Part shown: positions 5,958-63,224 of the stretch, one piece after another | Position numbering within the stretch: position 1 is the stretch's first letter | Layout of the letters: every line of letters starts with the position of its first letter | NCBI GenBank assembly: GCA_937880925.1 | Contig: CALGGB010000312.1 | Coordinates: 60 to 64,059, forward strand | DNA from: an uncultured Rhodospirillaceae bacterium | Lineage (GTDB): Bacteria; Pseudomonadota; Alphaproteobacteria; SP197 | Length of the DNA stretch: 64,000 nt | Reading direction: 5' to 3' | The notes under the pieces: model-generated | Database searches by the model: none | What the model was told of the DNA's origin: nothing | What the model saw: the letters and a program-made list of their open reading frames with translations, nothing else | Position numbers and translations under genes: made by a program

Positions 5958-5961
5958 TCCC

Positions 5962-10772: not shown

Positions 10773-10778
10773 GGGGGC

Positions 10779-11876: not shown

Positions 11877-12002
11877 GGGGGATGTTCCTGAAGGGACGGG
11901 CTGGGCGCACACCGATAACGCGCGACGGCGGGCCGCGTCCATCGCGGCATCGCGCGGCCACGGCCAAACGCGTTAAGGTGGCCGTCCCAGCGCGGAGCCG
12001 CC

Positions 12003-46891: not shown

Positions 46892-46979
46892 CGGCTGCTG
46901 TCAGGTGCCCTAGAGCGGATCACGATTCCGCAGAAAGATGATTTGCTCTAGGCCAATCTCGGCAGGATAGCAGGGGGAG

Positions 46980-47849
46980 TCAAACGCGCTCTGCCAGCGT
47001 GGCGCGTGCGGTCATCGCTAGTCCGCCCTGCGGCGTCTCCGCCCAGAGTTCCAGTTCGCCCGCCCCGGCGGGCTTGCCGCGCAGCACGAAGGGCGCGGTA
47101 TCGAACAGCGGCGCCACCGCGCGGAAGGAAAAAGCCGCCAGCGTCCGGCCGCCGCCATGCTCCAGCGCCAGGTCGGCGAGCAGGGTGGCGGTCAGCGGGC
47201 CGTGGAAGACGAGGCCGGGATAACCCTCGACATCGCGGCAGTAGTCGCGGTCGTAGTGGATGCGGTGGCCGTTGAAGGTGAGCGCGGAGTAGCGGAACAG
47301 CAGCACCGGCGAGGGTGTCACCGTGCGGGAGAAGACGGCATCGCCCGGGGGCGCCTGGGGTACGAGCGCCGGTGCACCTGGTGCCGGGTCCTCGCGATAG
47401 ACGATGTCGTGCTCCTCCCAGAAGCGTTCGGCGCCATCGGGGCCGGCAAGGCCGTGGCGCACGGTGACGAAACACAGGGCACCGGTGCGGCCGTGTTTGA
47501 CGGTGACATCGCGGATCGTGGAGTGGCGCATGACCGCCTCGCCCAGACGCAGCGGCGCCGAGAAACCAAAACGTCCTCCGGCCCACATGCGCCGGGGCAG
47601 GTCGACTGGCGGCAGGAATCCGCCGCGCCGGGCATGGCCGTCGCGGCCCAGACCGGAAAGCGCGACCGCCTCGTTGAAGTAGATCCAGTGCCACAGCGGC
47701 GGCAGGGCATCGCCCTCGGCGGGCTCCTGCCTGTGATCGAGCGTCGCGGCCATGCGCCGTGCCTGGCCCACGGCCAGAACATCCTGGTGCCTCTCGCTGC
47801 GCCCGATCCAGCCGCGCAGGACCTCCTCATCGGTCGTGGAAGTATTCAT
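46980..47849 (-). CDS. MaoC-family hot-dog (R)-hydratase/dehydratase (FAS1-like dehydratase N-domain + MaoC domain)
   Basis: PLWHWIYF…WAGGRF in the N-terminal half. The C-terminal half is hot-dog-like (…FHGPLTATLLADLA…). Confidence 0.55.
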   Translation of the reverse strand: MNTSTTDEEVLRGWIGRSERHQDVLAVGQARRMAATLDHRQEPAEGDALPPLWHWIYFNEAVALSGLGRDGHARRGGFLPPVDLPRRMWAGGRFGFSAPLRLGEAVMRHSTIRDVTVKHGRTGALCFVTVRHGLAGPDGAERFWEEHDIVYREDPAPGAPALVPQAPPGDAVFSRTVTPSPVLLFRYSALTFNGHRIHYDRDYCRDVEGYPGLVFHGPLTATLLADLALEHGGGRTLAAFSFRAVAPLFDTAPFVLRGKPAGAGELELWAETPQGGLAMTARATLAERV

Positions 47850-49177
47850 CGGCCTGGCCCTTCCATCAGGTCACGGAACCGGAAGGCCAGCGTGGCATCG
47901 CCGTGCAGCAACAGTGCCAGCAGGCGCGCATCACCGCCGCAATCAAGGAACTTTGCACCCACAGCATCGCTGTCCATCGGCTTGGCAAGACCGCCGCGGA
48001 CATCGGCGATGGTGGCGCTCGTTGTGCTGCCGTCGGCCATGGTCAGGCTGACGCTGTCGGGATGGGCCGGGCTCATGTCCTCCAACTCGCCATCCACCGT
48101 GTAGGCATCGATCGCAAGGCGCGTCATCAGGCCGCGCACGCGATTGTCGCGCAGCGCCTCCTCCTCGAAGGTCGCGGGCCCGATGGTCCCATGGACCAGG
48201 GCAGCGGCAACGCAGTAACGCACGCTGAAGCGGGCCTGCGCCGCGTTCCGGGGATCGAGGAAGCCGGCGACGCGGAAGAACGGTTCGGGCAGGGCGATGG
48301 TGCCTGCATGAACCGCCCCGGCATCAAAACCCGGTGCGGCGGCAAGCTGCAGGGCCGCCTCGATGGCGCGATGGGTGTAGGCGCAACTTGGCCAGGGCTT
48401 GCGCAGGGCCGGATCGGTCTCCATCGCACTGGGGCCGCAGGGCATGGCCGACCCACCCGCGCCATAGAGCGCCAGGAAGCCGTGCGGTCCCTCGCCCAGG
48501 GTGGCGTTGGCACTGACACCGGCCTCGACCAGCAGGGCCGCCTCCAGGCCGGCGCGGGCCGCAAGACCGGCATGAACCGGCTTGGCATGGCTGCCGAACT
48601 GCAGCTTCAGCCCGCCCGAGGAACTGCTCGCCAGGGCGAGCGCCATGGCGGTCTGCGCACCATCCAGCCCGAGCAGGCGCGCGGCCCCGGCGGCCGCACC
48701 GATCGGCCCGATGGTCGCGGTGGCGTGCCAGCCCGCCAGGTAGTGGTTGTAGCCGCCCAGCGCGCGGCCGCAGCAGACGATGGCGTCGTAGCCCGCCAGA
48801 TAGGCCGCCAGCAGCGAACCCAGGGAAACCTGGCGCAGGTTCGAAAGCGCCATCAGGCCGGGCACGATGGGTGCGCTGGGATGGGTCGAGCCGGGGATTT
48901 CATAATCGTCAAAATCCAGCACATGGGCCGCCGCGCCGTTGACCAGCGCCGCGGCACCGGCGGCAAGCGTTACGCCCGGCACGATGGTCGCGGCCGGGCC
49001 GCCGGCACCCGAGCGCGCCATGGCCTGCGCGATCACGCCGGGAAGCGGGTCGCTGCGCGCCGCCAGCATGCAGGCCAGCGTGTCGATGAGGCAAAGGCGC
49101 GCCTGCAACACGGCTTCGGGCACCGACGCCAGGCTCGCCACACGCGCGCCCAGCGCGGCAAAGAACGGTTCGCTCAT
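47846..49177 (-). CDS. MmgE/PrpD family protein (2-methylcitrate dehydratase-like)
   Basis: 443 aa with the MmgE/PrpD N-terminal motif (…LCLIDTLACMLAARSDP…). It overlaps the MaoC gene by 4 nt. Confidence 0.75.
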   Translation of the reverse strand: MSEPFFAALGARVASLASVPEAVLQARLCLIDTLACMLAARSDPLPGVIAQAMARSGAGGPAATIVPGVTLAAGAAALVNGAAAHVLDFDDYEIPGSTHPSAPIVPGLMALSNLRQVSLGSLLAAYLAGYDAIVCCGRALGGYNHYLAGWHATATIGPIGAAAGAARLLGLDGAQTAMALALASSSSGGLKLQFGSHAKPVHAGLAARAGLEAALLVEAGVSANATLGEGPHGFLALYGAGGSAMPCGPSAMETDPALRKPWPSCAYTHRAIEAALQLAAAPGFDAGAVHAGTIALPEPFFRVAGFLDPRNAAQARFSVRYCVAAALVHGTIGPATFEEEALRDNRVRGLMTRLAIDAYTVDGELEDMSPAHPDSVSLTMADGSTTSATIADVRGGLAKPMDSDAVGAKFLDCGGDARLLALLLHGDATLAFRFRDLMEGPGR

Positions 49178-49193
49178 GCTCTTTCCCTAAACT

Positions 49194-50201
49194 CTAGCGC
49201 GGGGCGGCGGCACGCGGCTTGCGCTGGGCCTTCATGATGCGCGCTGTTGCTTCTGGCGTCCCATCGTGAAAGCTGCCCGCCCAGAGATCGCCCGGAACGA
49301 CGCCGGTGCCGTAGTTGCAGTTGAAGTAACGATGATGGAGCTGGTGGTAGTAGCTCGCCAGATCGATCACCTTGCGCCCCTTCACCTGAAGATCGGCAAA
49401 GCCGATGTGGCTGGTGATACCACCCAGCACCAGGTGGTTGAAGAGATAGAACATGTGGATCGGGTGGCTGACGATCACCAGGTGGATAAGCGTGCTGCTG
49501 AAATAGAGCAGGTGTTCCAGCGGGTGCATGGCAAGGCCCGACCAGGGCCCGACCGCGATGTTCTTGTGGTGGATGGCGTGTGCAAAGCGATAGAGCGGCG
49601 GCCAGTGTAGCAGCCGGTGGATGAGGTAGAAGTGCGCCGATTCCCAGAGGTACAGCAGGGGAAAGAGCGCGGCGAACCACAACGGATTCGCCGCCCAGCC
49701 CAGCAGCGGCGTAAGGCCGGACGCCCAGGCCCAGAGTAGCAGGCATTGCAGGCTCGTCCAAAGGACGACACCGCTTGCCAGCGTCAGGAACATGTTGTCG
49801 AGGACCTGGTCGCGCCACAGGAACTTCGTGTCGTCGCGGGCAAGATCACGCCCGGAATAGCGGTGGTGGCTGCCCTGGCGCCCCAGGGTGTGGAAGTAGA
49901 GGTGCAGGCCGCCGGCGTAGGCAATCGTCAGCCCCAGATTGAGCGCCAGCAGGTGCAGCATCCAGCCGGGCGCAAGGCTCGCACAATCGGTGAGATCCGG
50001 TGCGAGCCAGAACCAGATGACCAGCGCCAGGCCAACATAGAGCGCCTCCAGCGACAGGACATAACCCCGGCCCAGCAACCAGGTGAGCGCGGCCAGAGGC
50101 CGCGGCGGCCAGGAAAGGAACCCTGGTCCCGGCGTGATGGGGACATCAGGCTGGAAGGCCCAGGCGGGGGCAGTGGGGGCGGACGGCTTGGCGCGCTTCA
50201 T
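49194..50201 (-). CDS. fatty acid hydroxylase / sterol desaturase superfamily membrane protein
   Basis: His boxes HRLLHW, HAIHH and HQLHHRY, plus TM helices. I use the ATG at 50201 (MKRAKPSAPT); the upstream extension of the ORF is Ser/Arg-rich and unsupported. Confidence 0.7.
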   Translation of the reverse strand: MKRAKPSAPTAPAWAFQPDVPITPGPGFLSWPPRPLAALTWLLGRGYVLSLEALYVGLALVIWFWLAPDLTDCASLAPGWMLHLLALNLGLTIAYAGGLHLYFHTLGRQGSHHRYSGRDLARDDTKFLWRDQVLDNMFLTLASGVVLWTSLQCLLLWAWASGLTPLLGWAANPLWFAALFPLLYLWESAHFYLIHRLLHWPPLYRFAHAIHHKNIAVGPWSGLAMHPLEHLLYFSSTLIHLVIVSHPIHMFYLFNHLVLGGITSHIGFADLQVKGRKVIDLASYYHQLHHRYFNCNYGTGVVPGDLWAGSFHDGTPEATARIMKAQRKPRAAAPR

Positions 50202-50310
50202 CGTGCAATGCTCCAGGGTGCCCGGCTTGTCCGGGCATCGCAGCATTCTGTGACCGGCCATGGCTTCTTGACCATGCATGGAATTCTGATGATCGTCATT
50301 CCCCGGAGGA

Positions 50311-51240
50311 ATGACGGTGCGCCCCAAACTGCCTTCCCTGCCTGCTCTTGCCGCCTTCGAGGCGGCGGTGCGCCATGGTTCCTTCACGCTGGCCGCGCGC
50401 GAACGCAACGTGCAGCAGCCCGCGATCAGCCGGCGCATCGCCGAGCTGGAAGACGAACTGGGGGTCACCCTGTTTGATCGTACCCGTCCGAACCTGCGCC
50501 TGACCGCCGACGGCGAACGTCTGGCTGCCGCGGTCGGCCACGGCCTGGGTCACATCGCGCAGGCGGTCGCCCTGATTCGCGAGCGCGGCGCGCGGCCCGG
50601 TCTGGTGGTCGACGTCACCATCGGCTTTGCCAGTTGCTGGCTGCTGGCGCGTATGGCGGGCTTCCGGGCCCTCTATCCCGACATCGAGATTCAGGTCACG
50701 ACCCGCGACGGCAACCGCGCCTTCGATGCCGAGCGCAGCGACGTCATCGTGCTGTTCAGCGATGACGAGGAACCGGGCGCCATCAACCGCAAGATTTTCG
50801 GCGAGACCCTGTTTCCGGTCGCCAGCCCGGCACTGGACACGGCAGGCCCGGCCATGACGCCGGACGACCTGCTGCAATCGCGCCTGCTCTTCCTGCGCGA
50901 TCGCATGCACGGCGGCGACTGGGCCCTGCTGCTGGAGGACAAGGGGTTGGCCGCCCCGGCGCCGCAGGCCGACGCCGAGTTCAACAGCTACATCGTCTAT
51001 CTGCAGGCGATCCTCAACGGCGAGGGTATCGGGCTGGGCTGGTCACACCTGATGGACGACCTGCTGGCCGCCGGGCGGCTGCAGCGTGTCGGCACCCTGG
51101 CGCGCACGACGCCGCGCGGCTACGTCTGCGTTCTGCCCGCAGGCAGGACGCCGCGCCCGGAGGCGCTTGCCTTTGTCGACTGGGTGACCGCGCAGGCCGG
51201 GGCGGCCACGTCAGCGGTCAGGGCTCCAGGAAGCCCATGA
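50311..51240 (+). CDS. LysR family transcriptional regulator, divergent from the hydroxylase operon
   Basis: LysR HTH ([40 protein letters not shown]) plus a substrate-binding domain. Confidence 0.85.
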
Positions 51241-52323: not shown

Positions 52324-53001
52324 TCAGGCCAAGGGCGGGCGGCGACCGAAGATCGCCGTGCCGACGCGGACATGGGTCGCACCGAAGGCGACGGCCACGG
52401 CATAGTCGCCCGACATGCCCATGGAAAGCTGGACGAGATCGTTGCGCCTGGCGATCTCCGCCAGCAGGGCAAAGTGGTGGCTGGGTTCCTCTTCCACCGG
52501 GGGGATGCACATCAGGCCGACGACATTGAGCCCGGCCTCCCGCGCCGCCGCCACCAGGGCGTCGGTCTCCTCGGGCAGGCAGCCGGCCTTCTGGGGCTCC
52601 TCTCCAGTGTTGACCTGGACGAAGCAGGCGGGATGACGGTCCTGCTTCTCCACCTCCTTGGCCAGTGCCTTGACCAACTTCTCACGGTCGATGCTCTCGA
52701 TGACATCGAAGAGCGCGACGGCTTCCCTGGCCTTGTTGGTCTGCAGCGGGCCGATCAGGTGGAGCTCGATATCGGGAAAGCGCGCCTTCAGCGCCGGCCA
52801 CTTGGCCTCGGCCTCCTGCACGCGGTTCTCGCCGAAGACACGCTGGCCGGCTTCCAGAGCGGGGAGGATGCGTTCGGCCTCATGGGTCTTGGAGACCGCG
52901 ACCAGCGTCACGGCATCGCCATCGCGGCCGGCATCGCGCGCGGCCTGCGCGATCTCGGCCTGTACGGCGGCAAGGTTTTCGGCGACGTCCTGATTGCTCA
53001 T
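52324..53001 (-). CDS. yggS: YggS family pyridoxal-phosphate homeostasis protein
   Basis: The PLP-lysine region [13 protein letters not shown] and the overall YggS/PROSC pattern. Its ATG overlaps the stop of the last sulfotransferase gene (ATGA). Confidence 0.85.
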
Positions 53002-53834
53002 GCTTCCTCGTCCAGATAGCCAAAGCGGCGCATTACCGCGCCGTGGTCGGCCTCGATGCGTGCGCGCTGCTTGTCGCTGAGGATAGCGCGCCAGCCGCCC
53101 GAACGTCCCTTGCGGAAGAACTTCTCCTGCTTTTCCGAACGCTCGCCGAAGCCCTTGCGGCTTTCCTGGCGCGTCAGCTTGTCGAAGGCGGTGTTCTCGA
53201 TCGCTTTCCTGACCACCGAGGCCGGCACATCCAGATGGAGGAAGGTCACGACCTGGCCGAAGGTCTGCTTGGGCCGGGCGAGCATGTCCTCGTAGCGCAC
53301 ATGGGTCACCGTCGCGCCCTCCTGAGCCGTCCAGCTCGAGACGTGCTGCGACCAGGTGCCGAGGAACTCCGCCACGCCCTTGTCCCCGACCTCGGTCATG
53401 GCGTCGGCCGTCGCCATGCTCTCGATCGTGGAGTCGATGGTGACGCCCAGGTGATCGGCATAGGAGACCACGACGTCGCGCGGGTCGCGCACGATGTAGA
53501 TCGCGCCCAGGGTGAGATCGGGATCGTGACTGGGCGTGCCCGAGAGGCCCGTGAGCATGGAGTGGGTCTTGACCAGCACGGTGCCGGGTCTGCTTTCGGC
53601 CATGGCGCGCTGCACGCGCGGGCGCAGGCGCACCACATCCTCGGCGTCCATCTCCTCCCAGGGTTTGGTAAGGAAAGGTTCGTAGTAGCGCCGCCCGGCA
53701 TCCATCATCGCGGTCCTGGAGATGGCGTTGAGATCGAGCGGTCCGCCGCGGTCATGGATGACGTTGTGCAGGAAGGCGCGCATCCAGGTGTTGCCGGATT
53801 TGGGATAACTCGCCAGCCAGAGAATCTTGCCCAT
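52998..53834 (-). CDS. PAPS-dependent sulfotransferase family protein, paralog 1 of 10 (subtype B)
   Basis: Starts MGKILWLASYPKSGNTW (5'-PSB motif) and has a VKTH catalytic His, IVRDPRDV (3'-PB) and FFRKGRSGGWR. Start is the internal Met of ORF 52998..53930, overlapping the stop of paralog 2 (TGATG). Confidence 0.85.
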   Translation of the reverse strand: MGKILWLASYPKSGNTWMRAFLHNVIHDRGGPLDLNAISRTAMMDAGRRYYEPFLTKPWEEMDAEDVVRLRPRVQRAMAESRPGTVLVKTHSMLTGLSGTPSHDPDLTLGAIYIVRDPRDVVVSYADHLGVTIDSTIESMATADAMTEVGDKGVAEFLGTWSQHVSSWTAQEGATVTHVRYEDMLARPKQTFGQVVTFLHLDVPASVVRKAIENTAFDKLTRQESRKGFGERSEKQEKFFRKGRSGGWRAILSDKQRARIEADHGAVMRRFGYLDEEA

Positions 53835-54670
53835 CACACAGCCTCGGGCAGGTAGCCGAAACGCGCCATCTGCTGGCCGTGGCGATCGATGATGCGCTGG
53901 GCCTGTTCGCTCGTGAGGTCGCGGCGCCATGCGCCAACCCCGCCGCCCCCGAAAAAACGCCTCTTCTCGCTGGCACTCTCGACAAACCCCTCCTCGCGCT
54001 CCTGGTCGCGCAGGTTTTCGATATCGCTGTGGGCAATGGCACGCTCAAGCCGTTCGGACGGCACATCCAGGCCCAGGAATCGGGTCAGGCCGCCGAAGGC
54101 GGCGACCGGGTCGGCGACCATGTCCTCGTAGCGCATGACATGGATGCGGGGATGGGGTTGCTGCGTCCAGCTCTTCACGTTCTGCGACCAGCCGCCCTGG
54201 AGATAGGGAAACACATCGCGGAAACGTTTGGTCACGTAGTCCTTGCGCGCCATCACCTCGATCGTCTGGTCGATGGTCGTGCCGTTGTGCCGGGCATAGG
54301 ACTGGGCGACATCCAGCGGATTGCGCACGATGTAGATCGCGCCCGAGAGCACATCCTGGGCAAACGGCGGCACGCCTTCCCAGGGCAGCAATGCGGCATG
54401 GGTCTTCATGAAGATGGTGTCGGGACCCAGCCCCGCGACATGGCGCTGGGCGGCATGGCGCAGGCGCGCGACATGTTCGTAGGACCAGGTGCTGTCGTCG
54501 CTGTCATCGACCGCGCGGTACCATTCGCCTGCGGTGTCGCCGGTCGAGAGCTTGCCGATCTCGGCCAGCGGCACGGGTTCCTTGCTGTTGGTGAACAGGT
54601 TGACGAGGAAGATCCGCGTCCAGGTGTTGCCCGATTTCGGGTAGCTGGCCAGCATCAGAAGATTGCCCAT
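53834..54670 (-). CDS. PAPS-dependent sulfotransferase family protein, paralog 2 of 10 (subtype A)
   Basis: MGNLLMLASYPKSGNTW, MKTHAAL, IVRNPLDV, FFGGGGVGAWRRDL, C-terminal MARFGYLPEAV. Confidence 0.85.
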   Translation of the reverse strand: MGNLLMLASYPKSGNTWTRIFLVNLFTNSKEPVPLAEIGKLSTGDTAGEWYRAVDDSDDSTWSYEHVARLRHAAQRHVAGLGPDTIFMKTHAALLPWEGVPPFAQDVLSGAIYIVRNPLDVAQSYARHNGTTIDQTIEVMARKDYVTKRFRDVFPYLQGGWSQNVKSWTQQPHPRIHVMRYEDMVADPVAAFGGLTRFLGLDVPSERLERAIAHSDIENLRDQEREEGFVESASEKRRFFGGGGVGAWRRDLTSEQAQRIIDRHGQQMARFGYLPEAV

Positions 54671-54679
54671 GGTCGGCTC

Positions 54680-55516
54680 CTAACGCTCCCCGGGAAGGTA
54701 GTCGAAGCGCGCCATCTGCTCGCCATGGCTCTTCACGATGGCATCGACCTGCGCCGCGCTCAGGGCCTCGCGCCAGCCGCCGGCACGGCCGGAGCGGAAG
54801 AATCGATCCTGTGCCGGCGTGCGCTCGACGAACCCTGCCCTGGCCTCCATCGCGGCGACCTTGTCGAAGGCGGCGTTGTCAGCCGCCCTGCGCACGCTCG
54901 CCTCGTCGGTCTCGATACGCATGAAGCGGGCAAGGGCAAGGAAGCTTCCGGCCGGGTCGGCCAGCATGTCTTCGTAACGCATGACATGGAGCTGGGGTGA
55001 GGCCTGGGTCGTCCAGCTTGCGACATGCTGGGACCAGGAACCCATGACCTCGTTGACATTGGTGGCGTTGGTCGGCGTGCGGAACATGCTCTGGCCCATC
55101 AGCGCGATAATGGCGTCGATCTCCACGCCCTGGTGATGGGCATAGGAGACCGCGACATCAAGCGGATTGCGCACGACATAGATCGCGCCGTGGCTGACCG
55201 CCATGTTGATCGACGGCACGCCGTGGTCGCGCACGAAGGCGCTGTGGGTCTTGACCGGAACGATGCCGGGGCCGGTGGCGGCGATGCGCTCCTGAACCTT
55301 GGGGCGCATGCGCGCGATCTCGGCCGGGCTCCATTGCTGCCAGGGTCGCCGATCGACAAGCGCGAACCCCGCCGTGCCCGGTTCGGCGAGCGTTGCCTCC
55401 CCGACCCGGTTGATGTCGACCGGTGCGCCATCGCCCTTCAGCAGATTGGCAAGGAAGATGCGGACCCAGGTGTTGCCCGACTTGGGGTAGCTGGCGAGCC
55501 AGAGAATGCGTCCCAT
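54680..55516 (-). CDS. PAPS-dependent sulfotransferase family protein, paralog 3 of 10 (subtype B)
   Basis: MGRILWLASYPKSGNTW, VKTHSAF, VVRNPLDV, FFRSGRAGGWR, C-terminal MARFDYLPGER. Confidence 0.85.
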   Translation of the reverse strand: MGRILWLASYPKSGNTWVRIFLANLLKGDGAPVDINRVGEATLAEPGTAGFALVDRRPWQQWSPAEIARMRPKVQERIAATGPGIVPVKTHSAFVRDHGVPSINMAVSHGAIYVVRNPLDVAVSYAHHQGVEIDAIIALMGQSMFRTPTNATNVNEVMGSWSQHVASWTTQASPQLHVMRYEDMLADPAGSFLALARFMRIETDEASVRRAADNAAFDKVAAMEARAGFVERTPAQDRFFRSGRAGGWREALSAAQVDAIVKSHGEQMARFDYLPGER

Positions 55517-55518
55517 GG

Positions 55519-56379
55519 CTACCAGCCCTCCGGCACGTAGCCGAAGCGGGTCATCTGCGCCCGGTGGCGCGCAACGATGGCGCGGGCCTCTGCCTCGGGC
55601 AGGTCGCGCTTCCAGGCATCGACGCCGCCACGTCCGAAGAAGGCCTGCTCACCCCCCTTGCCGAACAGGTTCTTCGTACCGCTGCGGCCGAACTCGCCGT
55701 CGCGCGTTTCCAGTTCCTTGAGCACCGGCAGTGCGCTGTTGGCAAGCGCCCGCTCGAAGCGTTCTCCAGTCGCCTCAAGCCCCAGGAACCGGCAGATGCC
55801 GCCGAAGCCCTCCTGAGGCTTCGCCACTATGTCCTCGTAACGCACGACATGAAGGCGGGGATGGGGCTTTGCGGTCCAGCTCGCGACATGCTGGGACCAG
55901 CCGCCCAGGAGATACTCCACCTCATCGGCCGAACGCGTGAGCATGAAATCGCGCGTGCCCATGGTTTCGACCATGCGCGCGGTGGCGACCTTGCTGTGGC
56001 GGGCATAGGACGGCGCCACGTCGAGCGGGTTGCGCACGATGCAGATGGCGCCGGCCATCAGTTTGGGCGCGAACGGCGGCAGTCCCGCCATCGGCAACAG
56101 TGCGGCATGGGTCTTCATGAAGGCGGTATCGGGCACCATGCCGGCAATATTCTCCTGCACCCGGTGGCGCATCGCGGCGACCTCGCCGGTGGTCCAGGCG
56201 GAGGGATCGCGCGCGTCAAGCTGGCGGTACCAGACCATGGCGACGTCGGAGGCCGAAAAGCGGCTGGCCTCCGAAGGCAGGATCGGCTCGGAGCGGTTGG
56301 CAAACAGGTTGGCAAGGAAGATGCGAAGCCAGGTGTTGCCGGACTTGGGGTAGCTCGCGAGATAGACGATGGCCGACAT
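55519..56379 (-). CDS. PAPS-dependent sulfotransferase family protein, paralog 4 of 10 (subtype A)
   Basis: MSAIVYLASYPKSGNTW, MKTHAAL, IVRNPLDV, FFGRGGVDAWKRDL, C-terminal MTRFGYVPEGW. Confidence 0.85.
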   Translation of the reverse strand: MSAIVYLASYPKSGNTWLRIFLANLFANRSEPILPSEASRFSASDVAMVWYRQLDARDPSAWTTGEVAAMRHRVQENIAGMVPDTAFMKTHAALLPMAGLPPFAPKLMAGAICIVRNPLDVAPSYARHSKVATARMVETMGTRDFMLTRSADEVEYLLGGWSQHVASWTAKPHPRLHVVRYEDIVAKPQEGFGGICRFLGLEATGERFERALANSALPVLKELETRDGEFGRSGTKNLFGKGGEQAFFGRGGVDAWKRDLPEAEARAIVARHRAQMTRFGYVPEGW

Positions 56380-56388
56380 GGCGACAGC

Positions 56389-57225
56389 CTACCAGCCATC
56401 GGGCAGATAGCCGAAACGGGCCATCTGGACACGGTGGCGCGCCACGATGCGGCGCGCCTGGGCTTCACTGAGATCGCGGCGCCAGGCATCGACACCGCCA
56501 CCGCCGAAAAAGGGCGTCGTCTCGTCTGGCCGTTCGGCGAAACCGTCGCGCGCCTCCATGGTGCGCAGCAGATTGATATCGCTGTTGGCGATGGCGCGCT
56601 CGAGGCGTTCGGGTGCGATGTCGAGACCCAGGAAACGCGCGACGCTGCCGAAGACCGAACGCGGCTGGGTGACCATGTCCTCGTAGCGCAGGACGTGGAT
56701 GCGCCGGTTCTTCTCGCGCGTCCAGCTCGCCACGTTCTGCGACCAGCCGCCCTGAAGATAGGGCAACACGCCCTTGGCGCGTGGCGGCACATAGTCCGCC
56801 CGCTCCATGACGTTGATGATGTTGTCGATGGGGATGGCGCTGTGGCGGGCATAGGAGGGCGCGATGTCGAGCGGATTGCGCACGATGCAGATCGCTCCCA
56901 GCGTCACCTCCGGGGCAAGCGGGGGCAGGCCGGCCATCGGGGCGAGCGCGGCGTGGGTTTTGACAAAGGCGGTGTCGGGTGTCTGCGCCGCGATGTAGCG
57001 CTGGACGTCATGGCGCAGCCTGGCGATATCCGCCAGGGTCCAGCTTGCCGGGTCGCGCTTGTCGACTTTTGTGTACCAGATCTCGGTGTTGTCGGCGGTT
57101 GTCCTTTCGCTGACCAGGTCCAGGGGGACAGGCTCGTCGCTGTCGCTGTAGAGGTTGAGCAGGAACAGGCGCAGCCAGGTGTTGCCGGACTTGGGGTAGG
57201 AGGCCAGGAAGACGATGTTGCCCAC
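56389..57225 (-). CDS. PAPS-dependent sulfotransferase family protein, paralog 5 of 10 (subtype A)
   Basis: MGNIVFLASYPKSGNTW, VKTHAAL, IVRNPLDI, FFGGGGVDAWRRDL, C-terminal MARFGYLPDGW. Confidence 0.85.
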   Translation of the reverse strand: MGNIVFLASYPKSGNTWLRLFLLNLYSDSDEPVPLDLVSERTTADNTEIWYTKVDKRDPASWTLADIARLRHDVQRYIAAQTPDTAFVKTHAALAPMAGLPPLAPEVTLGAICIVRNPLDIAPSYARHSAIPIDNIINVMERADYVPPRAKGVLPYLQGGWSQNVASWTREKNRRIHVLRYEDMVTQPRSVFGSVARFLGLDIAPERLERAIANSDINLLRTMEARDGFAERPDETTPFFGGGGVDAWRRDLSEAQARRIVARHRVQMARFGYLPDGW

Positions 57226-57228
57226 GGT

Positions 57229-58065
57229 TCAGCCTTCTTCGGGCAGATAGCCGAAGCGGGCCATCTGCGCGTGATGCTTCTCGACGACGCGGGCAACCTG
57301 TTGGGAGCTCAGCACATCGCGCCAGCCCCCGGCCCGGCCTTCGCGAAAGAAGCTCTTCTGGATTTTCGTCTTTTCCCAGAAACCGGAGCGTTCCTCCTGG
57401 CGGCGCAGTTCCTTGAACGAGGCGTTCTTGATCGCCTTGCGCAGCGCCTGGCGCGTCACCGGGATGCCGAGAAACTTCACCAGTCCGCCAAAGGCCGTCT
57501 GGGGATCGGCCAGCATGTCCTCGTAACGCATGACGTGGAGACCGGGATTGGGCCGGGCCGTCCAGCTTTCGACATGCTGGCTCCAGTTGCCCATGGGTTC
57601 GGCAACCGTGGTGTGGGTGGTGGGCGGCTCGTGGTTGTCGAGATTGAGTACCTCGATCGCCTTGTCGATCGGCAGGCCCTGGTGATCGGCAAAGGAAGGC
57701 ACGACATCGAGCGGATTGCGCACCAGGTAGATCGCGCCCGCTGTGACCGAAAGGTTGATCGTGGGATGTCCGTGGGCCTGCATGACCGCCAGGTGGGTCT
57801 TGGAGAACAGGTTGCCGGGCTGGGTCGAGGCGATCCAGGCCTGCACCCGGGGGCGCAGGGCGGCGACCTGCGCGGGTGTCCATTCCTGCCAGGGACGTTC
57901 CTCGAAGCGCACGAAGTTGGCTGTGGCCGCCTCGTTGGACGAAAGCTTGTCCATCTTGTTGATGTCGTAGGCACCGTCGCCACCAGCAAACAGGTTGTGC
58001 AGGAAGGCCCGCGTCCAGGTGTTGCCGGATTTCGGGTAGGACGCGATCCAGACGATCTTGCCCAT
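57229..58065 (-). CDS. PAPS-dependent sulfotransferase family protein, paralog 6 of 10 (subtype B)
   Basis: MGKIVWIASYPKSGNTW, SKTHLAV, LVRNPLDV, FFREGRAGGWR, C-terminal MARFGYLPEEG. Start is the internal Met of ORF 57229..58164. Confidence 0.85.
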   Translation of the reverse strand: MGKIVWIASYPKSGNTWTRAFLHNLFAGGDGAYDINKMDKLSSNEAATANFVRFEERPWQEWTPAQVAALRPRVQAWIASTQPGNLFSKTHLAVMQAHGHPTINLSVTAGAIYLVRNPLDVVPSFADHQGLPIDKAIEVLNLDNHEPPTTHTTVAEPMGNWSQHVESWTARPNPGLHVMRYEDMLADPQTAFGGLVKFLGIPVTRQALRKAIKNASFKELRRQEERSGFWEKTKIQKSFFREGRAGGWRDVLSSQQVARVVEKHHAQMARFGYLPEEG

Positions 58066-58067
58066 GA

Positions 58068-58907
58068 TCAGGCCTCCTCTGGCAGGTAGCCGAAGCGGGC
58101 CATCTGCTCGCGGTGATCGGCGATCACGCGGGCGGCCTGCCGGGCCGTCAGTTCCTGTCGCCACTGCCCGGCCGTACCCTTGCGGAAGAACGCCTTCTGA
58201 TGGGCCGGTTTTTCGGAGAAACCGTGTTCTTCTTCCTGCTTGCGCAGGCTCTTGAACGAAGCGTGTTCGATGGCGCGTTCAATCCGCTTGCGATCGAAGC
58301 GCTGGCCCAGATAGCCGGTGATGCCGGTGAAGGTTTTCACCGGCTGCTCCAGCAGATCCTCGTAGCGCATGACATGGACCCCCCGGTTCGTCTGGCCCGT
58401 CCAGCTTGCGACGTGCTGGGACCAGCTTGCCATGTGCTCGCTGACATTGCGTTCGTTGGTCGGCGTCGAGAACCCATCCGTTCCCATGATGGCGATGGCG
58501 GTATCGACGGCACAGGCCTGGAAGTCGGCAAAGGAAAGCACGATGTCGAGCGGGTTGCGCACGATGTAGATCGCCCCGGCGCTGACCGCCATGTTGACGG
58601 TTGGATGGCCGTTGATCGTGGTCAGCGCGTTGTGGGTCTTGCAGAAGACTGTGCCCTCTGCGCTGTCGGCGATCATCTTGTGGACGCGCGGGCGCATGCG
58701 CGCGATGTCGGCGGCCTTCCATTGCGCCGGCGGGCGCGGATCGGCGATGCGGTACCAGCCGATCGCCGATTCACCCTGGGCGAACATGCCGCTGGGACGG
58801 TCGACCGCCAGCGGCCGGGCGGCATCGTGCATCAGGTTGTCGAGGAAGGCGCGCACCCAGGTGTTGCCGGACTTGGGGTAGGAGGCGAGCCAGACGATGT
58901 TGCTCAC
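58068..58907 (-). CDS. PAPS-dependent sulfotransferase family protein, paralog 7 of 10 (subtype B)
   Basis: MSNIVWLASYPKSGNTW, CKTHNAL, IVRNPLDI, FFRKGTAGQWR, C-terminal MARFGYLPEEA. Confidence 0.85.
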   Translation of the reverse strand: MSNIVWLASYPKSGNTWVRAFLDNLMHDAARPLAVDRPSGMFAQGESAIGWYRIADPRPPAQWKAADIARMRPRVHKMIADSAEGTVFCKTHNALTTINGHPTVNMAVSAGAIYIVRNPLDIVLSFADFQACAVDTAIAIMGTDGFSTPTNERNVSEHMASWSQHVASWTGQTNRGVHVMRYEDLLEQPVKTFTGITGYLGQRFDRKRIERAIEHASFKSLRKQEEEHGFSEKPAHQKAFFRKGTAGQWRQELTARQAARVIADHREQMARFGYLPEEA

Positions 58908-59752
58908 GATGCCTCCCCTTGGGCCAGATAACCAAAGCGGGCCATCTGTTTGCCGTGGTCTGCGGCGATGCGGGCCGCCTGCTCCTGCGTGAGACTGTCG
59001 CGCCAGCCGCCGGCGACGCCGCGGCGGAAGAAACGCTCCTGGGCGGGCGAGCGTTCGTCGAAGCCGTCGCGGTCCTCCAGGGCACGCATGGTGGCAAAGG
59101 AGGTGTTGGCGATGGCGCGGTTGATCCGTTCCAGCGAGGCATCGAGCTTCAGGAAGTCGACCACCGCGCCGAAGGCCTTTTTCGGATTGGCATGGAGATC
59201 CTCGTAGCGCACGACGTGGATGGCGGGACTGGGCCGGGCGGTCCAGCTCGCGACATGCTGGGACCAGCTTCCCATCGGTTCGGCGACCTGGTTGTCACCC
59301 GCGGGCACCTCCAGGTTGGCGGTCGCCAGCGACGTGATGGCGGCGTCCACGGTGATGCCATGAAAGTCGGCAAAGGAAAGGGCGACATCGCGGGGATCGC
59401 GCACGATGTAGAGCGCACCGGCGGTGACCGACATCTCGATCGTGGGCACGCCGTGGATCAGAAGCAGCGGCAGGTGAGTCTTGCAGAAGACGCTGCCCGG
59501 ATGGGAGGCGGCGATGGTCTTCTGCACGGCAGGGCGCATGCGCGCGAGCTCGGCAGAGGTCCATTGTGTCGGCGGGCGGCGGTCCAGTGTCTGGTACCAG
59601 TGCAGGGAGGATGCGCTGGCCGAAATTCGGCCACCACGCGTGGCCGACAGCGGCAACGGCTTTTCGGCATCGGCGAAGATGTGATGCAGGAACGCGCGCA
59701 GCCAGGTGTTGCCAGACTTCTGATAGGAGGAAAGCCAGATGATGTTACCCAT
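58904..59752 (-). CDS. PAPS-dependent sulfotransferase family protein, paralog 8 of 10 (subtype B, variant PSB motif SYQKSGNTW)
   Basis: MGNIIWLSSYQKSGNTW (P to Q in the 5'-PSB loop), CKTHLPL, IVRDPRDV, FFRRGVAGGWR. It overlaps paralog 7 by 4 nt. Confidence 0.8.
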   Translation of the reverse strand: MGNIIWLSSYQKSGNTWLRAFLHHIFADAEKPLPLSATRGGRISASASSLHWYQTLDRRPPTQWTSAELARMRPAVQKTIAASHPGSVFCKTHLPLLLIHGVPTIEMSVTAGALYIVRDPRDVALSFADFHGITVDAAITSLATANLEVPAGDNQVAEPMGSWSQHVASWTARPSPAIHVVRYEDLHANPKKAFGAVVDFLKLDASLERINRAIANTSFATMRALEDRDGFDERSPAQERFFRRGVAGGWRDSLTQEQAARIAADHGKQMARFGYLAQGEAS

Positions 59753-59791
59753 GGCCCGGCCCCCCGCACGCGCGGTGATCGCTGCGACACC

Positions 59792-60643
59792 TCACCCGTC
59801 GTACCCTTCGGGGATGTAGCCGAAGCGGGCCATCTGCTCGCGGTGTACGGCGACGACCCGGTGAATCTGCTCAGGGCTGAGCACATCGCGCCAGCCGCCG
59901 GCGCGGCCTTCGCGGAAGAAATGTTGCTGGGCGGCCGAGCGTTCGGGGAAGCCTTCGGTTTCCTCCTGCTTGCGCAGCTCCTTGAAGTCGGAGTGGCGCA
60001 CGGCCCGCTCCAGGCGCTCTTCGGTGGCTTCCAGGCGCAGGAAGGCTGTCACCTTGCGGAAGGTGCCTACGGGATCGGCGATCAGATCCTCGTAGCGCAC
60101 GATGTGGAGACCGGGCCCGGGTCTGGCGGTCCAGCTCAGGACGTTCTGCGACCAGCTTCCCAGGACCTCGTTGATGCCCTCGTCGACCCGCGGCATGACC
60201 AGGCTGTCGGTCGCCATCAGGGTGATCGCCTTGTCGATCGTGATGCCTTCGAAATCGGCGAACGAGATCGCCACGTCGAGCGGATTGCGCACGATGTAGA
60301 TCGCCCCGGTGGAAACCTGCAGGTTGACCGTGGGATGGCCGGCGATGCGCATGACCGGCGCGTGGATCTTGCAGAAGACGGTGCCCTGGTGGCCCTCGGC
60401 GATCAGCTTCTGGGCCGGTGCACGCATGCGGTCGATGTCGGCCACACTCCACTTCTCGGGTGGGCGCGGATCGAGCGGCAGGAACCATTTCAGGGTCGTT
60501 GCGGCCGTGGTGATGCCGCCGCCGCCCATTTCCTTCAGCGGCAGGGGCTCGCGCGCATTGGTGAACAGGTTGTGCAGCAGCGCGCGCATCCAGGTGTTGC
60601 CGGATTTCGGGTAGGAGGCCAGCCAGATGATGTTGCCCATCAC
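59792..60643 (-). CDS. PAPS-dependent sulfotransferase family protein, paralog 9 of 10 (subtype B)
   Basis: MMGNIIWLASYPKSGNTW, CKIHAPV, IVRNPLDV, FFREGRAGGWR. Either Met may be the start; the second gives an ATGA-type overlap with paralog 10. Confidence 0.85.
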   Translation of the reverse strand: MMGNIIWLASYPKSGNTWMRALLHNLFTNAREPLPLKEMGGGGITTAATTLKWFLPLDPRPPEKWSVADIDRMRAPAQKLIAEGHQGTVFCKIHAPVMRIAGHPTVNLQVSTGAIYIVRNPLDVAISFADFEGITIDKAITLMATDSLVMPRVDEGINEVLGSWSQNVLSWTARPGPGLHIVRYEDLIADPVGTFRKVTAFLRLEATEERLERAVRHSDFKELRKQEETEGFPERSAAQQHFFREGRAGGWRDVLSPEQIHRVVAVHREQMARFGYIPEGYDG

Positions 60644-61488
60644 GCCACCGCCGAGTGGTCAGCCTTGAGATAGCCAAAGCGCTGCATCTGGATGCGATGG
60701 CGCTGCTCGATGGCCCGTGCCAGTTCGCCCGCCAGCTCGCGCCGCCAGGCGCCGGCCACGCCCTTGCGGAAGAAGCGGTCCGCATGGCCGGGGCGCTCGC
60801 GGAAGCCGCGCTTCTTCTCCTGATCGGCAAGCGCCTTGAAGGAACTGTTGCGCAGCGCCGCATTGAGCCTGGGCGCAGGCACATCCAGGCCCAGGAACCG
60901 GGTGACGCCGGTGAAACACCTGATGGTGTCGCGCAGCATGTCCTCGTAGCGCACGACATGGAGTCCCGGACTCGCCTGCGCGGTCCAGCTTTCGACATGC
61001 TGGGACCAGCTCCCGATGACATCGGGCATCATGGCGGCGCTGGCGTCGGTGTGCGCGTTGTCAGTGGCCATCAGTTCGACGATGCGTTCGTGGGACTGAC
61101 CCAGGTGATGGGCAAAGGAAAGCGCGACATCGCGGGGATCGCGCACGATGTAGATCGCGCCGGCGGTGACACCCATGTCGATGGTGTCGGCGCCGTAGAT
61201 GTGCAGCAAGGCGCTGTGGGTCTTGACGAAGCGGGAGCCCGAGGCCGCCCCGGCGAGGCTCTGCTGGACCTTGCCGCGCAGACCGATCGCCTGCTCGACC
61301 GTCAGGCTGTCGGCCGGCTTGCCCGCGATTCCGGCGTAGAGCGCGGGATCGACATCGCCCCCGGTCAGTTCGTCGAGCCGGTTGATGTCATGCGGCGACG
61401 GCGCGGCCAGCATCAGGTTGTGCAGGAAGGCGCGCATCCAGGTGTTTCCCGACTTCGGGTAGGAGGCGAGCCAGACGATTTTTCCCAT
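60640..61488 (-). CDS. PAPS-dependent sulfotransferase family protein, paralog 10 of 10 (subtype B), first gene of the array
   Basis: MGKIVWLASYPKSGNTW, VKTHSAL, IVRDPRDV, FFRKGVAGAWR, C-terminal MQRFGYLKADHSAVA. Confidence 0.85.
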   Translation of the reverse strand: MGKIVWLASYPKSGNTWMRAFLHNLMLAAPSPHDINRLDELTGGDVDPALYAGIAGKPADSLTVEQAIGLRGKVQQSLAGAASGSRFVKTHSALLHIYGADTIDMGVTAGAIYIVRDPRDVALSFAHHLGQSHERIVELMATDNAHTDASAAMMPDVIGSWSQHVESWTAQASPGLHVVRYEDMLRDTIRCFTGVTRFLGLDVPAPRLNAALRNSSFKALADQEKKRGFRERPGHADRFFRKGVAGAWRRELAGELARAIEQRHRIQMQRFGYLKADHSAVA

Positions 61489-61599: not shown

Positions 61600-61630
61600 A
61601 AAAAGAAAGGGGCGGTCCGAAGACCGCCCC
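61600..61630 (-). terminator. rho-independent terminator of the porin gene (minus strand)
   Basis: On the minus strand GGGGCGGTC-ttcg-GACCGCCCC is followed by TTTCTTTTT. It separates the porin gene from the sulfotransferase array. Confidence 0.75.
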
Positions 61631-61653
61631 TTCCCGATCGGATCTGGTGAAGC

Positions 61654-62859
61654 TTAGAAGCTCACCATGATGCCGGCACCAGCGAAGTACGAGTCGTACT
61701 CCCGGCTGGCAGCGCCATCGTTGAACTGATCGAAGCCGACAGTACCGGTGACGGCAATGCCCGGGCCCATGTCGTACTGGGCCTGGACGCGGTAGGCATC
61801 GAACTTGTCGGTGACACCATTACCCGCACCGGCAATCGGACCGGCCGCGACGCCAAGGGCGCCCGGAGCGAAATCGGTCTCAGCGTGCAGCCAGTAAGCA
61901 CCCATCGACCAGGCGCCGTCCGACCAGTACGCAATACCGAGGTCCATCGCCCACTGATCGGTGCCCGCGAAGCCACGCATGTTGGACACGTTCAGGTACG
62001 AACCACCGAAGCCCCAGTTGCCGTAGTACAGAACCAGGCCGGCGTTGTAGGCCTCATGATCCTTGGCCTGGATGCTCGGGCTGACCGTGCTGCCGACTGC
62101 CTGGTCATAACCCAGGGCAACCGTCACGCCCAGATCGCCGATCTCGCCGTCGTAACGGCCGGCAATCGACCACTCTTCGGCCAGCGCGGGAGCGGTACCG
62201 GTGCTCGCCGTGCGGGTGCCGAGGAAGTAACCGCCGCCCGAACGGGCTTCGCCCTGGCTCGGCGCATAGCTGATGCCGAACTGGAAGCCGTTGAAGACCG
62301 GGGTGAAGTACATCAGCTGCGCATCGTCGCCCGTCATACCGGGGAAGGTCGCGAACGTGGCATAGCCAGCGCCAGCGGCCGTACGGCCGGTTGCCGAGAA
62401 GAACTGCGACAGACCGTTGGTGAAGACGGTCGCCGAGTTCGCCCCGAACAGGTAGTTCAGGTAGGGAGCCGCGGTCGCCATCGAGTACGACACGGGATCG
62501 TCGTTGCCGACACGGAACGTACCGAACGAGCCCTCGAGGTAGACGTAGGTCTCGTCCTGCTGGTCGCCCTGGGTCTCACCCTCGAGCTCGAAGCGGACAC
62601 CAACCTCGAGACCATTGTCGAGGACGGTCTTGCCCTTGAACTGGATCTCGCCGTCGAAGACGATGCGGTTGTCGTAGCGGTTGAAACCGGGCTGTGCCGG
62701 CAGGGATGCCGTCGCGGCGTTCGAATCGTTGTCGCCGATCCAGGTAGCCCAATTCTGATAGCCACCAACGTTCAGCTCGATCGGATCGGCCGCCTGCGCC
62801 TGCTGCGCGACGAGACCCGCCGAGACAAGCGCCGTGGTTCCAAGAAGAACCTTCTTCAT
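61654..62859 (-). CDS. outer-membrane porin (alphaproteobacterial porin family)
   Basis: Signal peptide MKKVLLGTTALVSAGLVAQQAQA, a Gly/Tyr-rich amphipathic beta-strand pattern and a C-terminal …GAGIMVSF with terminal Phe. I use the ATG at 62859. Confidence 0.7.
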   Translation of the reverse strand: MKKVLLGTTALVSAGLVAQQAQAADPIELNVGGYQNWATWIGDNDSNAATASLPAQPGFNRYDNRIVFDGEIQFKGKTVLDNGLEVGVRFELEGETQGDQQDETYVYLEGSFGTFRVGNDDPVSYSMATAAPYLNYLFGANSATVFTNGLSQFFSATGRTAAGAGYATFATFPGMTGDDAQLMYFTPVFNGFQFGISYAPSQGEARSGGGYFLGTRTASTGTAPALAEEWSIAGRYDGEIGDLGVTVALGYDQAVGSTVSPSIQAKDHEAYNAGLVLYYGNWGFGGSYLNVSNMRGFAGTDQWAMDLGIAYWSDGAWSMGAYWLHAETDFAPGALGVAAGPIAGAGNGVTDKFDAYRVQAQYDMGPGIAVTGTVGFDQFNDGAASREYDSYFAGAGIMVSF

Positions 62860-63224
62860 TTGCGCAAACCTCCTAGGACTGCTCATTTGCCAAGCGTCTT
62901 TCCAGGATTGGAAAGAAGACCGATGTCCGATCCCCCGATCCCCTGCCCTGTTGTTCCCTTCGCGGGAAACGCCAGTGCAGGGGCCTCAATATCGAAGTGA
63001 CCGTCTGCCGGTTTCGCGAGCACAAGCTAACAAGCCGGGCACCGGTGCTCCACAGCAAAAGCGGGGTGTTGTGGTCTTTGCGGCGCACTGTTGCATTCTT
63101 GCACCAGAAGGTGGCCCGGAAACGGCCGCATTATATAGGTGATATGGCGCTTGCCCGCACGGCGCTCCTGCGCCAAGGTGCGGCCGTCCACAGCCTAGGG
63201 CCTGCGTTGACCTTGTCCAGCATC

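Follow-up and report, generated by a model that had tools for sequence, protein, structure and literature searches.

How did two motif classes of sulfotransferase gene come to alternate within a single tandem array, and what does the difference between them mean for the enzymes? The array in question lies in a 64,000-nucleotide stretch (hereafter the window) of contig CALGGB010000312.1 from an uncultured Rhodospirillaceae bacterium. Ten consecutive minus-strand genes of the PF00685 (Sulfotransfer_1) family, identified from the open reading frame (ORF) listing and an alignment, occupy positions 52998–61488 and encode proteins of 278–286 amino acids. We numbered them S1 to S10 by ascending coordinate; transcription runs from S10 to S1. 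An earlier sequence-only reading had divided the genes into a subtype A (S2, S4, and S5) and a subtype B (the other seven), attributed their interleaving to ancient duplication of multi-gene units, and predicted at least two acceptor specificities. Comparison with related arrays indicated that the B-A-B-A-A pattern is the result of two late single-gene gains of A (S2, and S4 beside S5) in an array whose order was already set. We consider it likely that the locus as a whole is an old operon of at least seven sulfotransferase lineages, in which A genes were copied late, an arginine of the donor site was relocated in the A lineage, and variable loops set many specificities.

Phylogeny and gene order of the array

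Related arrays occur at the same locus (leuS–DUF3576/porin/sulfotransferases/yggS) in other uncultured bacteria and are mutually collinear. The closest, L086, has ten genes, and its tryptophanyl-tRNA synthetase (TrpRS) is 97% identical to that of the window. L088 has nine genes, L089 has eight in a 5.5-Mb genome (TrpRS, ~80%), L091 has at least eight, and a JGI contig has 10–11. Our taxonomic placement is based on TrpRS, which is 81% identical to that of a Rhodospirillales MAG and 70% identical to those of Stellaceae and Tistrella. Trees of these and other family members were built by neighbor-joining (NJ) from simple corrected distances with 200–500 bootstraps, with sets of 139 and 265 sequences among them.

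S2, S4, S5, and their orthologs form one clade with 100% bootstrap in both the 139- and the 265-sequence tree, and the A subtype was also found in other organisms. The division into two subtypes thus held for A and failed for B, since the remaining window genes belong to at least six separate, deep orthogroups, with 1:1 collinear orthologs in the related arrays (bootstrap, 78–100%). The A clade is nested within the diversity of B, with a B-motif gene at position 2 of L088 and L089 as its sister (83%), and the outgroup copies, from other Alphaproteobacteria and from Gammaproteobacteria, all carry the B motif. B is therefore the ancestral, paraphyletic state and not a subtype.

The single-A arrays date the A duplications. 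L088, L089, and L091 each have exactly one A gene, flanked by orthogroup 5 (the KTHLAV type) and orthogroup 8 (the KTHSAFV type), and S5 sits at this ancestral slot, after orthogroup 5. No gene corresponding to the S2 position, between orthogroups 8 and 10, is present in L088, L089, or L091, and L086 has no counterpart of S4. The S4 type also includes P0021 and P0029 (100%), and S2 clusters with L086_09 and P0001–P0005 (91%). Together, the A copies of the window and L086 (the S2/L086_09, S4, S5, and L086_07 types) form their own clade (87%), which is sister to the single-copy A genes (80%). Protein identities tell the same story. Every B gene of the window is 52–70% identical to its ortholog in L091, L088, or L089 versus 45–54% to its closest window paralogs, whereas every A gene is 55–59% identical to another window A versus 49–54% to the A gene of those three arrays. 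This pattern indicates that the B duplications preceded, and the A duplications followed, the split from L088, L089, and L091, and that the A copies duplicated without the B genes on either side of them. The proposed origin of the interleaving in ancient multi-gene duplication is contradicted by these data.

We propose that at least seven orthogroups in a fixed order would already have been present in the common ancestor of a Rhodospirillales-like lineage, which now has 8–11 copies per locus. A would ancestrally have been a single gene between orthogroups 5 and 8 that was copied by single-gene events in the lineage of the window and L086. One copy would have landed between orthogroups 8 and 10 (S2) and another in tandem (S4/S5), which would produce the apparent interleaving.

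In the JGI contig, genes 9296–9574 and 9559–9990 are one sulfotransferase split into pieces of 92 and 143 amino acids. The split gene resembles a copy that has been frameshifted or is decaying, which would indicate some birth-and-death turnover in the array.

Conserved motifs of the ten sulfotransferases

All ten proteins matched PF00685 over profile positions 4–255, with E values of 1e-24 to 1e-34 and scores of 87–119 bits (gathering cutoff, 22 bits). The sulfotransferases had no NCBIfam match, and a tblastn search of plasmids returned only generic "sulfotransferase domain-containing protein" matches. Pairwise identity among the paralogs is 38–59%; the A copies are 53–59% identical to each other and 38–47% identical to the rest.

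Most residues expected of a sulfotransferase using 3′-phosphoadenosine 5′-phosphosulfate (PAPS) are conserved in all ten copies. The 5′-phosphosulfate-binding (PSB) loop reads SYPKSGNTW in nine copies and SYQKSGNTW in S8, with Lys12 and Thr16 in all ten. Lys89 and His91 of the catalytic Lys-x-His are invariant (S9 has K-I-H), and the 3′-phosphate-binding motif R[ND]PxDxxxS is found in every copy with Arg116 and Ser124 kept. At the C-terminal block known as region IV, the seven B copies have Arg where S2, S4, and S5 have Gly; G243, W248, and R/K249 are shared by all ten. The catalytic His corresponds to His108 of SULT1A1, in which Arg130 and Ser138 belong to the 3′-phosphate motif (RNxxDxxxS). 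The role of this 3′-phosphate-binding motif has been described (PMC4199319). The PAPS loop starts at residue 9 in all ten proteins, and there is no N-terminal extension, which suggests that the sulfotransferases are cytosolic.

Most of the motif differences reported from the sequence alone were borne out. In the alignment, the block FFG(G/R)GGV(G/D)AW is present in S2 (FFGGGGVGAWRRDL), S4 (FFGRGGVDAWKRDL), and S5 (FFGGGGVDAWRRDL), and the order B-A-B-A-A-B-B-B-B-B is right on plus-strand coordinates, the order of transcription being the reverse. The catalytic context MKTHAALLP, ascribed to all A copies, is exact in S2 and S4; S5 reads VKTHAALAP, leaving KTHAAL.P common to the three. Likewise, the pattern FFR.G.AGGWR given for the other seven is exact only in S3, S6, S8, and S9, with S1 (RSGGW), S7 (TAGQW), and S10 (VAGAW) deviating by one residue each, and the looser pattern FFR[KSER]G....WR fits all seven.

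The SYQKSGNTW loop of S8 was also read correctly. Its Gln is the sole non-Pro residue at that position among 258 family members, besides that of the S8 ortholog L086_04, and is a fixed, conserved character of the orthogroup. We rejected the possibility that S8 is a decaying copy: the Gln is kept in L086_04, the ratio of nonsynonymous to synonymous substitution rates (dN/dS) is 0.18, and S8 scores highest of the ten against Pfam.

Region IV and the proposed relocation of an arginine at the PAPS site

A profile of the ten copies ("erFFrkGragaWrreL") aligned to SULT1A "SPFMRKGMAGDWKTTF" (the FMRKGMAGDW region), so the C-terminal block that distinguishes A from B is region IV of SULT-type enzymes. 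Kakuta and colleagues reportedly observed in 1997 that Arg257, Lys258, and Gly259 of this region contact the 3′-phosphate of PAPS in mouse and human structures. Region IV, or GxxGxxK, is P-loop related and constitutes a PAPS-binding region (PMC4199319). The identities of the motifs thus place the A/B difference on the donor side of the active site and not in the acceptor pocket. For this reason, the C-terminal block is a poor basis for predicting two acceptor specificities: it belongs to the PAPS site, and the arginine lost there appears to be compensated elsewhere.

The A clade is set apart from the rest by nine positions (S2 numbering): A92, P96, M97, R127, R149, Q158, G160, G241, and R263. 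Position 127 is three residues beyond the 3′-phosphate-binding Ser (Ser+3); A sequences read SYARH, and B sequences read S[YF]A[DH][HF] (SYADH/SFADF). We tabulated this position and position 241 for 259 family members. When position 241 was not Arg, position 127 was Arg or Lys in 41 of 42 sequences, compared with 4 of 217 when position 241 was Arg. The exception among the 42, L035_5094, also lacks the catalytic Lys. On the tree, Arg241 was lost on at least four occasions: in the A clade, L078, the clade of L066, L072, and L077, and the gammaproteobacterial L069. L062 and L046, two of the four sequences with basic residues at both positions, are the sisters of L069, which is consistent with gain of the new basic residue before loss of Arg241. 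Outside the arrays, Teg12 and Teg14 have Arg at Ser+3, and Teg14 reads FVGEG at region IV, with Gly at the Arg257 equivalent.

In the A proteins, then, the FFG.G block lacks the region IV Arg (Arg257 in SULT1A1), and the Arg at Ser+3 would supply the 3′-phosphate charge in its place. The covariation, read together with what is known of SULT structures, suggests that Arg127 contacts the 3′-phosphate. Teg14 is a PAPS-dependent enzyme, and the A enzymes would likewise be expected to remain PAPS dependent. The role of Teg14 in the TEG cluster has been cited (PMC11727664). The covariation offers a testable rule for reading PAPS-site variants in PF00685, and it cautions that absence of the "RKG" arginine should be read neither as functional loss nor as a marker of specificity.

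Two copies show additional changes around these motifs. The L035 exception (5094–5930) is a divergent copy on a very long branch, with VSTH in place of VKTH and FFQHA in place of FFRxG; it may be an inactivated paralog. S4 has an eight-residue insertion, NLFGKGGE (55648–55671), directly ahead of its region IV motif. The insertion is also found in the orthologs P0021 and P0029, as NLFGK(G/D)GE. At the protein level it resembles a degenerate second copy of the motif (LFGKGGE versus FFGRGGV), with weak similarity at the DNA level.

Selection, predicted structure, and specificity positions

Comparison with the L086 orthologs gave dN/dS values of 0.14–0.40, which are rough because dS is near saturation (0.5–0.9). 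Most B genes fell at 0.14–0.20, and the A genes and S1 fell at 0.30–0.40; for comparison, the values for yggS and the porin gene were 0.13 and 0.30. All ten copies are under purifying selection. The rate of evolution of the A genes is roughly double that of most B genes, with 59–68% versus 77–87% identity to L086. Paralog DNA identity is 60–80% without long near-identical tracts, and the same ten-gene array is present in 20 contigs of independent metagenome assemblies. The array is therefore not an assembly artifact, and we rejected both recent gene conversion and assembly collapse.

AlphaFold2 models of S2 and of S6, a B-type representative, had confidence scores (predicted local distance difference test [pLDDT]) of 94.3 and 96.8, respectively; within the region IV loop, the scores were 76–87 for S2 and 94–95 for S6. 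A Foldseek search of the PDB placed Teg12 (3mgb) first (TM score, 0.66–0.69; 23% identity), followed by cytosolic SULTs, retinol dehydratase, StaL, and plant SOTs. All of them are sulfotransferases for small molecules or peptide phenols. The S2 model had 111 PDB matches at E ≤ 0.001, and all 50 of the matches listed were sulfotransferases or the homologous retinol dehydratase. The best PDB matches by sequence were Teg12, Teg14, and SULT1A. The predicted fold is of the SULT alpha/beta type.

Positions that are constant within orthogroups and variable between them cluster at residues 38–52, 92, and 129–157. The first stretch links the PSB helix to helix 3, the second follows the catalytic His, and the third precedes the WSQ helix. 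In SULTs and Teg12, the equivalent stretches are presumably the variable loops that line the acceptor site. Acceptor specificity or regiospecificity would be set by the variable loops at residues ~38–52, ~92–100, and ~129–157, which differ between all orthogroups. Because these positions separate every orthogroup from the others, not just A from B, about seven or more specificities are predicted, and the number of different sulfations carried out by the operon is probably about seven to ten instead of two.

Alternative explanations

The idea that A and B genes alternate through segmental duplication of a multi-gene unit, for example B-A, followed by divergence toward two acceptor specificities, draws on several features of the array. 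A is a well-supported clade with its own motifs, and the order A–orthogroup 8–A could formally arise by duplication of [A–orthogroup 8] with loss of one orthogroup 8 gene. In addition, the deep sister groups are not adjacent (A and the position-2 gene of L088 and L089, 83%; orthogroups 5 and 8, 81%), which is compatible with an old block duplication. The timing and the orthology of the genes nevertheless speak against it. L088, L089, and L091 have a single A gene, yet orthogroups 8 and 10 are both already present there. Segmental duplication would make genes at equivalent positions closest paralogs diverging at the same node, but S1 and S3 are 44% identical, are not sisters, and both have orthologs in the single-A arrays; every B gene is closer to its distant orthologs than to any window paralog. 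The gaps around S2 are −1 and 9 nt and hold no remnant of a lost gene, and B comprises at least six lineages that are as divergent from each other as from A. We rejected segmental duplication as the source of the interleaving on these grounds of orthology and timing, and consider this explanation as a whole, including its two specificities, highly improbable.

Other interpretations concern function. The altered donor site might mean that the A copies lost normal PAPS binding and either use another donor, such as adenosine 5′-phosphosulfate (APS), or serve as non-catalytic regulatory paralogs. All A sequences have Gly in place of Arg241, the equivalent of SULT1A Arg257; S4 and S5 also carry Asp at the second Gly of GxxG; the A genes evolve faster; and the region IV loop is modeled with less confidence in S2 than in S6. 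On the other hand, the PSB-loop Lys, the catalytic His, and the Arg116/Ser124 3′-phosphate-binding motif are intact, dN/dS is well below 1, and the almost regular presence of a basic Ser+3 residue in sequences without Arg241, with its repeated origin, points to selection to keep a positive charge. Teg14, with the same configuration, is PAPS dependent. Loss of PAPS use is thus very unlikely in our judgment. A different proposal is that the array is a birth-and-death "detoxification battery" of promiscuous phenol/alcohol sulfotransferases, comparable to the mammalian SULT1/SULT2 clusters, and not a group of regiospecific enzymes dedicated to related cellular acceptors. It would account for the xenobiotic and small-molecule SULTs among the structural neighbors, for scaffold-biosynthesis genes not being found nearby, and for the copy number of 8–11 with lineage-specific gains (S4, S2, and L086_03) and one split JGI gene. 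It sits less well with the collinearity and 1:1 orthology of most copies down to ~80% TrpRS identity, with the tight packing in one operon with some stop/start overlaps, or with purifying selection on every copy; collinearity, packing, and selection together suggest non-redundant, co-expressed functions. We regard a detoxification battery as possible but doubtful.

Several points count against the preferred reading of an old, ordered operon with late copying of A and a relocated arginine. Deep nodes between orthogroups are weak (25–83%) and come from NJ trees with simple corrected distances, and the near-saturated dS makes the selection estimates approximate. L086_07 groups with the S2 type (89%) and not with S5, so that position and phylogeny partly disagree in the A clade; the A copies have undergone a degree of turnover or gene conversion, and gene conversion, or copying of [A–orthogroup 8] with subsequent loss of the extra orthogroup 8 gene, may have contributed. 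The proximity of Arg127 to the 3′-phosphate rests on covariation and knowledge of SULT structures. A scan detected no promoter-like site between the porin terminator and S10, and no PAPS-synthesis genes, scaffold-biosynthesis genes, or acceptor were found in the 64-kb window.

Proposed operon organization and genomic context

The locus would be one operon whose ten sulfotransferase genes encode cytosolic, PAPS-dependent O-sulfotransferases with the SULT/Teg12 type of structure. Spacing between the array genes is −4 to 39 nt, with several stop/start overlaps; the start of S9 overlaps the stop of S10 by 1 nt, and S7 and S8 overlap by 4 nt (Table 1). The 310/311-amino-acid ORFs of S1 and S6 in the ORF list are N-terminal over-extensions. 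The true starts are the methionines of MGKI(L/V)W, which overlap or abut the upstream stop codon.

The porin gene directly upstream has its own intrinsic terminator, read from the sequence, with a 9-bp GC stem, a UUCG-type loop, and a T-run. It appears as a hairpin in the predicted fold and is kept with compensatory stem changes in L086 (~3020–3060), L088 (~4720–4760), and L089 (~5580–5620). Within the array, a terminator scan, which also missed the porin terminator, gave no minus-strand terminator-like site. Given the tight packing, the porin terminator, and the lack of an internal one, the array is most simply a single operon, S10...S1-yggS, downstream of a porin gene with its own terminator. 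The overlap of S1 and yggS points to translational coupling of yggS to the last gene of the array. No Rfam match was obtained across the whole 64-kb window, and a riboswitch or known RNA upstream of the array was rejected on this basis.

Table 1. Features of the sulfotransferase locus, in window coordinates.
Feature	Position	Strand	Description
yggS	52324–53001	−	PLP (pyridoxal phosphate)-binding protein of PLP homeostasis; TIGR00044, E 1.2e-50; start overlapped 4 nt by S1 stop
S1	52998–53834	−	Last sulfotransferase gene, orthogroup 10; FFRKGRSGGW, VKTHSMLTG; orthologs L086_10, L088_09, L089_08, L091_08 (100%)
S2	53834–54670	−	A-type, between orthogroups 8 and 10; FFGGGGVGAW at 53927–53956; Arg127 codon at 54290–54292; MKTHAALLP
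S3	54680–55516	−	Orthogroup 8; FFRSGRAGGW, VKTHSAFVR; orthologs L086_08, L088_08, L089_07, L091_07 (100%; 65–80% identity)
S4	55519–56379	−	A-type, A clade; FFGRGGVDAW at 55612–55641; Arg at Ser+3, 55999–56001
S5	56389–57225	−	A-type, A clade (100%); FFGGGGVDAW at 56482–56511; Arg at Ser+3, 56845–56847; VKTHAALAP
S6	57229–58065	−	Orthogroup 5; FFREGRAGGW, SKTHLAVMQ; orthologs L086_06, L088_05, L089_05, L091_05
S7	58068–58907	−	PF00685; FFRKGTAGQW, CKTHNALTT; ortholog L086_05 (100% bootstrap, 86% identity)
S8	58904–59752	−	SYQKSGNTW orthogroup; Gln codon at 59720–59722; ortholog L086_04
S9	59792–60640	−	PF00685, KIH-type orthogroup; FFREGRAGGW, CKIHAPVMR; orthologs L086_02, L086_03 (100%)
S10	60640–61488	−	First array gene, orthogroup 1; FFRKGVAGAW, VKTHSALLH; PF00685, E 4.8e-27; 1:1 orthologs L086_01, L088_01, L089_01 (99% bootstrap; dN/dS vs L086, 0.16)
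Porin terminator	61600–61633	−	Intrinsic, between porin gene and S10; GGGGCGGTC-TTCG-GACCGCCCC, then TTTCTTTTT
Porin gene	61654–62886	−	Outer-membrane porin directly upstream of array; Pfam Porin_4 in gene calls

The remainder of the window is ordinary core chromosome (FtsK, NifU, MiaB, PhoH, YbeY, Lnt, MetK, TrmB, TrpRS, and a two-component system), and the other neighbors of the array are DUF3576, leuS, trpS, and further housekeeping genes. Nonribosomal peptide synthetase (NRPS), glycosyltransferase, and export genes were not found in the 64-kb window. Polysaccharide deacetylase and glucosaminidase genes lie more than 20 kb from the array. An Acetyltransf_5 gene at 34785–35621, of the OlsB-like lyso-ornithine-lipid acyltransferase family, hints at ornithine-type lipids. 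Downstream of trpS, an orphan minus-strand cluster (44711–50468) encodes a LysR regulator, a fatty-acid hydroxylase-family protein, an MmgE/PrpD-like protein, a hotdog dehydratase, an acyl-carrier protein, and two proteins of 341 and 294 amino acids without Pfam matches. This cluster is also present in L086 (13470–18526) and absent beside the L088 and L089 arrays.

The porin–sulfotransferase–yggS module in other bacteria

Distribution of the locus was analyzed by a scan of one genome per GTDB species, which yielded 79 loci; the species of the window is outside this set, and its best match was 48% identical. Most loci had one or two sulfotransferase copies, and the maximum was five. A Porin_4 gene stood beside the sulfotransferase gene or genes in 35 of the 79 loci, and yggS followed in 29 of the 79 as well as in all of the related arrays. 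The usual layout is DUF3576(−) porin(+) sulfotransferase(+) yggS(+), with one to five sulfotransferase genes. This module was found in Parvibaculum, Kiloniella, Pelagibius, Sneathiella, Rhodobiaceae, Reyranellaceae, Dongiaceae, and others (loci L009, L013, L015, L020, L022, L024, L026, L028, L030, L036, L040, L045, L049, L065, L068, L072, L077, and others). The literature searched contained no account of the module or of large sulfotransferase arrays in bacteria.

Porin–sulfotransferase units have been duplicated jointly in L008, L011, L023, and L040. In L011, near-identical units (1370–3320 and 10086–11980) flank five tyrosine-recombinase genes, and in L008 a near-identical inverted pair (2337–6926) lies beside a YhgA-like transposase gene. 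These arrangements suggest that the unit may be moved or copied by mobile elements. Because the L011 and L008 duplications are recent and beside integrase or transposase genes, they are weak evidence of functional coupling between porin and sulfotransferase. Only the co-duplication in L040 looks old, and we did not retain co-duplication as proof of coupling.

A broader proposal would make the module an envelope-linked sulfation system, in which the co-expressed paralogs sulfate different positions of a shared acceptor made by the cell, and would make the relocation of the arginine a general alternative SULT architecture, shared with Teg14 and probably Teg12. We consider this combination unlikely. 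Under it, the acceptor may be an envelope lipid or glycan, a peptide, or the porin itself.

Comparison with known sulfotransferase systems

Most known SULT-type enzymes of bacteria are lone tailoring enzymes encoded in natural-product clusters. The locus described here stands out as a core-genome operon of 8–11 genes that is collinear under purifying selection across an uncultured Rhodospirillales-like lineage, at a porin–sulfotransferase–yggS position common to many Alphaproteobacteria. The locus as a whole, with 8–11 conserved cytosolic sulfotransferases tied to porin and yggS, is of more interest than the A/B split. Finding the acceptor would lead to a sulfated metabolite or envelope component of widespread soil and marine bacteria and to a panel of diversified regio- or substrate-specific sulfotransferases for biocatalysis.

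Among Gram-negative systems, Sinorhizobium meliloti LpsS and NodH, Mesorhizobium loti KpsS, cyanobacterial synechan Xss, and methanobactin MbnS are PAPS-dependent cytoplasmic sulfotransferases, and some of these bacteria are Alphaproteobacteria. Certain of the corresponding envelope or secreted-product clusters contain more than one sulfotransferase (PMC8205485, PMC3621798). Their genes adjoin glycosyltransferase, export, or precursor-peptide genes, unlike the array, beside which we found no glycosyltransferase, polysaccharide export, or lipopolysaccharide (LPS)-core genes in the window, L086, L088, L089, or L091.

Eukaryotic SULT1/SULT2 enzymes and plant SOTs share the PF00685 domain and the regions PKSGxTW, KTH, RNxxDxxxS, and FxRKGxxGxW[KR] (PMC4199319), and they too form multi-paralog tandem families with differing acceptor specificity. 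They differ from the bacterial proteins in identity (~20%) and in an N-terminus that is ~15 residues shorter in the latter, and they are encoded by independently regulated genes rather than by one operon.

The best matches in both sequence and structure (profile E, ~1e-25) are Teg12, Teg13, and Teg14 of the environmental-DNA (eDNA) TEG cluster and StaL of Streptomyces toyocaensis. At only ~20–24% identity this is resemblance and not membership. The N-terminal (M)xxIxWIASYPK(A/S)GNTW is found on both sides, and Teg12 and Teg14 are like the A subtype in having Arg at Ser+3, Teg14 also in its Gly at the Arg257 equivalent. The Teg and StaL genes belong to actinomycete NRPS clusters and number one to three paralogs, whereas the array has ten, seven of them B copies with a eukaryote-like RxG region IV, and is part of the core genome, with a porin gene and yggS on either side and no NRPS in the 64-kb window. 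The adjacent paralogs Teg12, Teg13, and Teg14 place sulfate on residues 3, 6, and 4 of a single aglycone (PMC11727664), and they are the closest precedent for co-located sulfotransferase paralogs with distinct positions.

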